A stretch of 8,509 nt of DNA from a virus (IMGVR_UViG_2541047122_000023), one strand, 5' to 3'. Positions 2,526 to 3,068 are shown, counted from the first letter of the stretch. Notes: generated by a model from the sequence alone, not told the origin. Numbers and translations: made by a program.

Positions 2526-3068
2526 TCACACTGATTGGTTAGGTAAAACGCTCCTAAGCACCATTGCGCAACCACCTCGTTCGTAATCAGCAATGTACTC
2601 AAAACCACTTTCAGTATAGTATCTTATTGCCCCATCAACTGGACTAACTAAAGCTATCGAATCAATAGATTCACCCTGAAGGTTCAGAAATCGTGCATAT
2701 GCAGAGAAGCAATCCAAAACGATACCAAGCATCTGATGGTCTAGGTCTTCATGTGCATCATTACGTTTTTCCATCCAGCAAATATGCACCGCATTTTTCG
2801 GCTTACAGTAACACCCAAATGCAAATCCAATAGGCTCCCCACGATAATAAACAACTAGTTTTATCGGGTGTTCTTCCATCATATCCATAAACACTCGCGA
2901 CTTTAGTCCGGGATCCCACCGCAGTTTATTGTTAGCCTTGAGGAACTCCATATCTTTTAGTACCAGCTCGTCGGCATATACGAGCCCTAACGACTTATGA
3001 GGGAAGCGCCCTTTTAAATACTCTGCAACATTTTTAAATACTGCTGTTTGGAAGGCTTGAAACATCAT
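2526..3068 (-). CDS. Hypothetical protein, 180 aa, with a possible GNAT-like acyltransferase core in the C-terminal half
   Basis: Clean 180-codon ORF starting ATG ATG at 3068. The C-terminal half shows a pattern reminiscent of the GNAT fold: hydrophobic strand IKLVVYYRGEPIGFAFG, then HQMLGIVLDCFSAYARFL (a QxxGxx-like stretch), then GAIRYYTESGFEYI (resembling GNAT motif B ending in GF). Assignment is from motif-level resemblance only. AT-rich relative to flanking phage genes. Confidence 0.55.
   Translation of the reverse strand: MMFQAFQTAVFKNVAEYLKGRFPHKSLGLVYADELVLKDMEFLKANNKLRWDPGLKSRVFMDMMEEHPIKLVVYYRGEPIGFAFGCYCKPKNAVHICWMEKRNDAHEDLDHQMLGIVLDCFSAYARFLNLQGESIDSIALVSPVDGAIRYYTESGFEYIADYERGGCAMVLRSVLPNQSV

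Follow-up and report, generated by a model that had tools for sequence, protein, structure and literature searches.

Among the described systems closest to the gene studied here, the GNAT-DUF1778 (RHH)/DUF4065 toxin–antitoxins of type II are defined by an adjacent partner that contains a DUF1778 or a DUF4065 domain (PMC9177977), and AcrVA5 is a GNAT of mobile elements that inactivates the immune effector Cas12a by acetylation (10.1101/2021.11.16.468554; PMC11021501). In the protein N-acetyltransferase RimI, the proton is accepted by Glu103, whereas Tyr115 acts as donor (PMC3347575). As to genomic location, the cos-proximal region of P2 between gpA and gpQ is a defence hotspot (Rousset et al., PMC9122126); 15–32% of the unknown proteins of that hotspot are predicted to be antiviral, and at the equivalent locus of the P4 satellite six of eight randomly picked cargos of unknown function gave phage protection when tested (PMC13586616). 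We analyzed a viral stretch of 8,509 nucleotides (IMGVR_UViG_2541047122_000023; hereafter the window), and within it a gene at positions 2526–3068 of the minus strand (gene 1), which we propose to encode a divergent GNAT-fold acyltransferase and to form, together with a 61-amino-acid partner gene (gene 2; 2149–2334, minus strand), a mobile cargo cassette of prophages.

An earlier note, made from the sequence alone, had recorded a 180-amino-acid protein at 2526–3068 without giving its strand, and had overlooked the partner gene, the promoter-like site and terminator, and the mobility described below; the open reading frame (ORF) of 543 nt is indeed there and lies on the minus strand, the plus-strand translation of the same interval being full of stops. 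The second Met (ATG at 3065), which would give a protein of 179 amino acids, is the start in most homologs and in the phage record ON470584. The identical protein occurs on at least 1000 contigs and, at ≥99% identity, in 98 of 5426 complete E. coli genomes, O157:H7 strains among them, and full-length homologs with identities of 26–87% are found in Escherichia, Enterobacter, Citrobacter, Cronobacter, Erwinia, Proteus, Photorhabdus, Pragia, Limnobaculum, and Vibrio. Because of these full-length homologs in many genera, along with the exact protein on so many contigs, gene 1 is, on the sequence evidence, a genuine gene and not a chance ORF. The family is very small: 5.8 billion proteins yielded 28 clusters, HMMER run exhaustively over 1.84 billion found only 25 representatives, all 173–197 amino acids long, and just one of 50,697 phage records contains a member. 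The sole family match is phrog_11949, whose function is not annotated in PHROGs; gene 1 had no match in Pfam, NCBIfam, or PADLOC, and its RefSeq name is hypothetical protein. One UniRef cluster, with a Citrobacter member, was automatically named "GNAT family N-acetyltransferase", every other source giving hypothetical.

Gene 2 (phrog_11292, likewise without an annotated function in PHROGs) accompanies gene 1 in every locus retrieved. A homolog lies downstream on the same strand in all 46 loci retrieved (profile E values of 1e-19 to 1e-31) as well as in the three further short contigs that reach past gene 1, for a total of 49 of 49 pair loci, of which about 21 are non-redundant. Its homologs measure 58–67 amino acids, are separated from gene 1 by 82–226 nt, and share the core ...SPME.FG..W....LER..P. 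When the pairwise identities of the two proteins were compared over 18 loci, the Mantel correlation was 0.91, a value that none of 5000 permutations reached, and the mean divergences were alike (45 and 44%). Since the partner is always present, and since the two divergences are tightly correlated and equal, genes 1 and 2 evidently constitute an obligate pair that is inherited and constrained as a unit. The Shine–Dalgarno sequence of gene 2 (a strong AAGGGG in the window) is stronger than that of gene 1, the medians being −7.8 versus −5.6 kcal/mol (p = 0.004, with the GNAT starts approximate). Gene 2 had no match in Pfam, NCBIfam, or PADLOC, and a Pfam scan of seven homologs at E ≤ 10 detected neither DUF1778/RHH nor DUF4065. 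We considered an XRE-like helix-turn-helix (HTH) on account of the pattern FG-x-[ST]-W...LER..P; no HTH profile matched, however, and the protein is mostly not basic, so that we make no such claim. A Cys is frequent in the C-terminal tail without being universal, and the idea that this residue is essential, be it to accept the acyl group or to mimic a thiol, was dropped as a general feature, the tail of two of the three extra contigs lacking it.

The assignment of gene 1 to the GNAT fold comes from the AlphaFold2 model built on the family alignment, which model is confident, with a predicted local distance difference test (pLDDT) score of 86 and a predicted template-modelling (pTM) score of 0.84. 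Its helices (H) and strands (E) are H2–21, E28–31, H34–45, H53–62, E66–75, E78–88, E93–101, H108–130, E137–141, H145–153, E157–159, and E168–172; this order is that of the canonical GNAT, β1-α1-α2-β2-β3-β4-α3-β5-α4-β6-β7, with one extra helix (α0, residues 2–21) in front. In a Foldseek search of the PDB with that model, Naa50, RimI, PaiA, ArsN, Gcn5, Ard1, and Naa60 were at the top of 300 matches at E ≤ 1e-3, the closest structural neighbours being protein or peptide N-acetyltransferases; among viral models GNATs were again found among the matches. Because the order of the elements is canonical and both Foldseek searches agree, the whole chain is predicted to be a single, complete, and very divergent GNAT domain. 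The earlier note was thus right at the level of the fold, which it had placed in the C-terminal half behind an unassigned extension of some 70 residues; that division does not hold, for residues ~26–75 are the ordinary N-terminal arm of a GNAT and only the helix 2–21 is additional. The helix is itself conserved among 30 divergent family members, the sample for all the conservation counts below: Q7 and F11 in 28 of the 30 each, and A15 in 24. Weak sequence matches in the PDB to a GDP-mannose dehydrogenase (E 0.023) and to AhpC (E 0.65–1.7) were short, clashed with the fold, and were not reproduced by the profile, and were set aside as chance.

Several of the conserved residues of the family lie at the end of β4 and in the β4–α3 connection, which is where GNATs bind coenzyme A (CoA) and catalyze the transfer. 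In β2, Y74 is invariant (30/30) and Y75 is also conserved; in β3, G81 and G85 are conserved (30/30); in β4, E95 is conserved, E100 occurs in 29 and K101 in 28 members, followed just past the strand by R102 and D104, with 26 each. P143 is conserved after β5, and Y151 (28/30), G155 (26/30), and F156 (28/30) mark the α4–β6 region. The most conserved element of the family is the connection of 11 residues between β4 and α3, E100-KRNDAHEDLD-H111. This loop (EKRNDAHEDLDH) exceeds that of the protein N-acetyltransferases (RimI and others) by 7 residues, is acidic, and hardly varies. With the registers of the motifs read off the sequences, Y151-TES-G155-F156 corresponds to Y115-ESL-G119-F120 of RimI, and the 39 residues from Q112-M-L-G115-I-V117 to the motif-B Tyr reproduce the spacing that in RimI starts at Q76-R-Q-G79-L-G81. 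HQMLGIV (residues 111–117) is therefore a plausible degenerate motif A as judged from spacing, although the last Gly/Ala of motif A in RimI-type enzymes is replaced in the family by Val, Ile, or Ala, and although the model places the region inside helix α3 rather than in a loop. This motif and YYTESGFE (150–157) are where the earlier note had them, except that the latter is not terminal, 23 residues (β6–β7 and the tail) coming after it. Since the motif-B Tyr stands in the RimI register, and since the Glu, Lys, Arg, and Asp at the end of β4 and in the β4–α3 connection are near-invariant, we predict that the enzyme is probably active, with an acyl-CoA donor bound at a non-canonical site.

The two genes are enclosed by predicted elements of their own, for which the counts that follow refer to 18 non-redundant loci. 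Upstream, a sigma-70-like site (TTGAAA-18-TAGAAT, 10 of 12 consensus matches; 3096–3125, minus strand) lies 27 nt before the start of gene 1, shortly after the late terminator of the phage; promoter-like sites 5′ of gene 1 were found in 12 loci versus 5.9 expected. In the P2-like loci the gene upstream of the pair is divergently oriented, so that there the pair would need its own promoter. Between genes 1 and 2 is an intergenic spacer of 191 nt (2335–2525, minus strand), in which a block TTGAAA-N15-TGCAAT-CTGG (2487–2457) is conserved among the E. coli- and Erwinia-like loci, and a hairpin (2405–2385) maintains its base pairing despite sequence changes in the loci L033 and L035. At the corresponding place in the spacer, 47–94 nt before gene 2, 11 loci have a weaker hairpin with a T tail. 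Such a hairpin may serve as an attenuator or as a partial terminator, or may represent a small RNA; the Rfam scan of the window, spacer included, yielded no significant RNA family. A canonical promoter for gene 2 inside the spacer was also sought, and the 5 loci that contained one, versus 4.5 expected, are at the level of chance. After gene 2 an intrinsic terminator, GAGCCCCACATATTGTGGGGCTT plus a T-run with a free energy (dG) of −16.7, closes the cassette (2066–2094, minus strand), and a GC-rich terminator at most 120 nt past gene 2 is present in 17 loci, with dG from −10.6 to −16.7. As read from these predicted elements—a promoter-like site, two genes, and a terminator—the pair appears to have the architecture of an autonomous moron.

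In the window prophage gene 1 occupies the slot between the antiterminator gene Q and the lysis genes (the Q–holin slot), where the replacement has clean junctions. The near-identical prophage of E. coli SX12 has no cassette and contains in succession Q, a 67-amino-acid ORF, an intact methyltransferase of 350 amino acids, and the holin; its homology to the window stops at 1886 and restarts at 3149, from which break it follows that a swapped-in segment of 1,262 bp (1887–3148), containing only the cassette, took the place of the 67-amino-acid ORF and, at the 5′ end of the methyltransferase gene, of two-thirds of its length. What is left of the latter is a 3′ remnant (1577–1891, minus strand) matching only the C-terminal part of the Pfam N6_N4_Mtase domain, that is, the C-terminal ~104 residues of a ~350-residue N6/N4 methyltransferase, which remnant RefSeq lists as a pseudogene "missing N-terminus". 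Another prophage has at this slot only Q, the 67-amino-acid ORF, and the holin. The guanine-plus-cytosine (GC) fraction is 0.33–0.43 in the swapped-in segment versus 0.48–0.54 in the flanks; in the profile of the window it falls to 0.37–0.42 at this slot, from 0.50–0.57 on either side.

Replacement junctions were located by comparison with two E. coli prophages, those of SX12 and JBEHAAB, and with phage PV94 of Vibrio. In the Vibrio loci L011 and L014 the pair resides in P2-like prophages (PV94/Kappa-type Peduoviridae), with the replication/ogr genes on one side and the portal gene on the other, which position is the cos-proximal gpA–gpQ slot; relative to PV94, whose flanks are 93–95% identical, 1,135 bp containing only the pair stand in place of 398 bp with a different small ORF. 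In Proteus the pair likewise comes after Q, and in Pragia it is found past the lysis genes, beside a pyocin-S-like gene and ahead of the terminase. The pair is thus evidently exchanged horizontally between lambdoid prophages and those of the P2-like type, in whose accessory slots it is found. In that Pragia fontium prophage (L007, 7444–9037) a Pyocin_S-domain gene of 433 amino acids and an ORF of 100 amino acids directly follow the pair before the terminase genes; the ORF is possibly an immunity gene, and the two together resemble another cargo unit that shares this slot. At L010 6001–6805 (GCA_947500655.1), the pair that has diverged furthest (identities of 26 and 22%) is surrounded by genes for TonB_C, DUF695, radical SAM, RraB, and QueF proteins and by no recognisable phage genes, which context suggests that the pair may not be limited to prophages.

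On these grounds we propose that gene 1 is the first gene of an autonomous two-gene prophage cargo cassette, or moron, composed of promoter, GNAT gene, regulatory spacer, partner gene, and terminator, which cassette would in the lysogen be transcribed from a promoter of its own and would act in phage–host or phage–phage conflict, be it in defence or in superinfection exclusion. The amine acylated by the enzyme would belong to a protein or, with lower probability, to an aminoacyl-tRNA, and the partner, more strongly translated and predicted to consist of a helical body and a disordered tail, would bind the enzyme so as either to restrain it, after the manner of an antidote, or to direct it. To this reading, of a lysogen-expressed cassette with a function in such conflicts and a partner that restrains or directs the enzyme, we give a probability of roughly 0.4. 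A more specific version, which we put forward only tentatively and regard as doubtful, is that of a previously unrecognised two-component immunity or toxin–antidote system carried by phages, wherein an orphan GNAT, through its unique acidic active-site loop, would acylate a protein and in this way stop either a competitor phage or the host cell, wherein a dedicated partner of some 60 residues, unlike known antitoxins, would gate the enzyme or be acylated by it, and which system would pass horizontally between P2-like and lambdoid phages in the Enterobacterales and the Vibrionaceae.

Several observations weigh against that proposal. With respect to the fold, the GNAT sequence profile Acetyltransf_1 appeared only at E = 0.11, in 1 of 28 and in 2 of 30 members, and an hhalign comparison of the family profile with E. 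coli RimI gave a probability of 9%, which is not significant; sequence profiles therefore miss the GNAT, the claim of the fold depends wholly on the predicted structure, and the residues had to be mapped onto RimI by motif registers. Of the computational checks that the earlier note had suggested, structure comparison recovered a GNAT and profile searching did not. With respect to catalysis, the acetyl-CoA loop is not canonical, as that note had remarked, and for it the family offers two degenerate candidates of motif A: in the one already described, position 115 is Pro in 14 and Gly in 10 of the members, and the other register, R102-N-D-A105-H-E107, falls in the modelled acidic loop. Moreover, the position of RimI Glu103 is Ala139 in gene 1, so that any general base would be E100 or E95. 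As for the partner, its AlphaFold2 model of three short helices and an unstructured tail is of low confidence (pLDDT 63) on a shallow alignment, and the spacer hairpins with their T tails imply less transcription of gene 2, which would be awkward for an antidote needed in excess. Finally, neither gene matches the defence models of PADLOC-DB v2; the literature searched for the protein, its accession, or phage defence by GNATs of this type gave no relevant result; and position in a hotspot is only circumstantial evidence for defence, the lambdoid Q–S slot being also a place for toxins and other conversion genes.

Five other explanations were weighed. In the one that survives best, unlikely as we consider it, gene 1 would be a lysogenic-conversion enzyme acting on a small molecule such as an antibiotic, a polyamine, an amino-acid analogue, or a metabolite, and the partner would be a chaperone or unrelated co-cargo. 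Many of the GNATs matched do act in that manner (streptothricin and glycylthricin acetyltransferases, ArsN, SpeG, PaiA, and glyphosate acetyltransferase), the family is acidic, and the moron architecture suits genes that benefit the lysogen; nevertheless, such an enzyme would have no need of an obligate, co-diverging partner of 60 residues, nor are resistance or metabolic genes found alongside.

Improbable as well is that the two genes form an enzyme–substrate pair, in which the GNAT would acylate gene 2 at its N-terminus, at a Lys, or in the tail so as to produce an active signal, inhibitor, or toxin. The strict linkage and co-divergence of the genes would be explained by such a relationship, as would the nearness in structure to N-terminal acetyltransferases of proteins and peptides, a substrate with an exposed and unstructured tail (in the low-confidence model), and the good translation of gene 2. 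A cassette of 1.1–1.3 kb nonetheless contains no protease, exporter, or immunity gene; gene 2 has, from its sequence, no signal peptide; and what is conserved in it is the helical core and not a "core peptide", the tail being variable and its Cys not universal.

We attach similarly little probability to a counter-defence enzyme, namely a phage GNAT that, like AcrVA5, would acetylate and disable an immune protein of the host with the small protein as its adaptor. The precedent of a mobile-element GNAT that inactivates an immune effector speaks for it, together with the phage-borne nature of the cassette and structural neighbours that act on proteins. The position in the lambdoid prophages, however, downstream of Q in the late region and with a promoter-like site and a terminator of its own, is typical of morons expressed in the lysogen and not of early anti-defence genes; the cos-proximal slot of P2 is a documented site of defence genes; and AcrVA5 is not among the structural matches listed.

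That gene 1 is a pseudoenzyme, a catalytically dead scaffold of the GNAT fold that only binds its partner or a target, would account for the degenerate motif A with its frequent Pro115, the acidic β4–α3 loop, the Ala at the general-base position, and the failure of GNAT profiles; the strong purifying selection on GNAT catalytic and CoA-contact positions (E100, K101, R102, D104, Y151, and G155–F156) and the preserved register of motif B nevertheless make it quite improbable. The last alternative, a classical toxin–antitoxin of the TacT/AtaT kind whose GNAT would acetylate charged tRNAs and arrest translation, with a small protein antitoxin and an outcome of addiction or abortive infection, we judge very unlikely on the differences detailed at the end of this section.

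As to the remainder of the window, its genes are all on the minus strand and make up the part of a lambdoid prophage devoted to late functions and replication, in the order PerC-like, Dam methylase, LexA-DNA-binding-domain protein, RusA, KilA-N, DUF968, and antiterminator Q (4032–3280), with gene 1, the 61-amino-acid ORF, the truncated methyltransferase, the holin, a GH104 lysozyme, and Rz with an embedded Rz1 following after Q. Downstream of Q is the late-promoter and tR′ region (3146–3279, minus strand), containing a tR′-like late terminator of a hairpin and a run of eight T (3148–3174, minus strand), which terminator forms the upstream boundary of the cassette; its hairpin gave weak, non-significant leader-like Rfam matches (AgrB, Leu, and Trp leaders; E 0.3–0.4). 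The Rz1 lipoprotein gene (226–408) lies out of frame inside Rz (167–628, minus strand), with matches to Pfam Rz1 (E 3e-20) and Phage_lysis (E 1e-53). Such an embedded Rz1 is the classic arrangement of spanins. A 108-amino-acid protein resembling the LexA DNA-binding domain alone (E 3e-19; 6258–6584, minus strand) and a PerC-family regulator (E 3e-9; 7234–7728, minus strand) may possibly modulate host regulation. At the right edge, the C-terminal remnant of a transposase (rve_3/rve_2, E 8e-9; 8258–8464, minus strand) of the insertion-sequence (IS) family IS3 is found where the FRIK2533 prophage has an intact HTH gene of the replication region, so that an IS appears to have disrupted this copy of the prophage. 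Positions 1–135 of the plus strand, beyond Rz on the opposite strand, should include the 3′ end of an iss/bor-like serum-survival lipoprotein gene, by comparison with FRIK2533 (L001, 3317–3610).

With respect to significance, the fold itself is already known, and the GNAT label already exists in one automatic annotation; what appears to be so far undescribed is the signature loop, an obligate partner unlike the known antitoxins, and the spread of the cassette across phage types, in a family which stands isolated from all sequence profiles, itself a fact that appears undescribed. An anonymous ORF of about 2% of the complete E. coli genomes, almost everywhere annotated as hypothetical, becomes a compact, clonable candidate module of 1.26 kb, and the pair is in consequence a testable candidate for a new phage-conflict module and not a demonstrated new system. 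If the pair does serve in defence or as toxin and antidote, the known mechanisms of phage–bacterium conflict would be extended by an orphan GNAT family that acylates proteins and has a new kind of partner, and the pair would also exemplify cargo traded across bacterial orders by phages of the lambdoid and P2-like types; if it does not, the corrected structural annotation of phrog_11949 and phrog_11292 still stands.

When the locus is set beside the known systems, the GNAT toxins differ from it in several respects. In TacAT, AtaRT, KacAT, and ItaRT the partner is adjacent or overlapping, whereas gene 2 lies downstream behind a long spacer and contains neither DUF1778 nor DUF4065; the toxins TacT, AtaT, KacT, and ItaT were no closer to gene 1 in structure than were other GNATs in the Foldseek search of the PDB; and those toxins are basic, whereas the gene 1 family is mostly acidic, which property would be unfavourable for the binding of tRNA. 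Because partner domains, gene arrangement, structural distance, and acidity all differ, the pair should not be filed with the TacT/AtaT-type family, a possibility that the earlier note had raised and that the features testable here do not bear out. To RimI, to Naa50, Naa10, Naa20, Naa40, and Naa60, and to Gcn5 the identity of gene 1 is only 5–19%, and in comparison with such protein N-acetyltransferases gene 1 adds a conserved N-terminal helix, an obligate small partner gene, and a prophage location. With AcrVA5 it has in common that a GNAT is carried on a mobile element, AcrVA5 acting on a protein in phage–host conflict; that enzyme, however, is encoded by a single gene without a partner, whereas gene 1 is always paired, and it was absent from the structural matches to gene 1 listed by Foldseek. 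There is also a likeness to the defence cargo of the P2 gpA–gpQ region (tin/old) and to the lambdoid morons, with which the pair shares the same slots, a promoter-like site and a terminator of its own, a deviant GC content, and a presence or absence that varies between near-identical phages.

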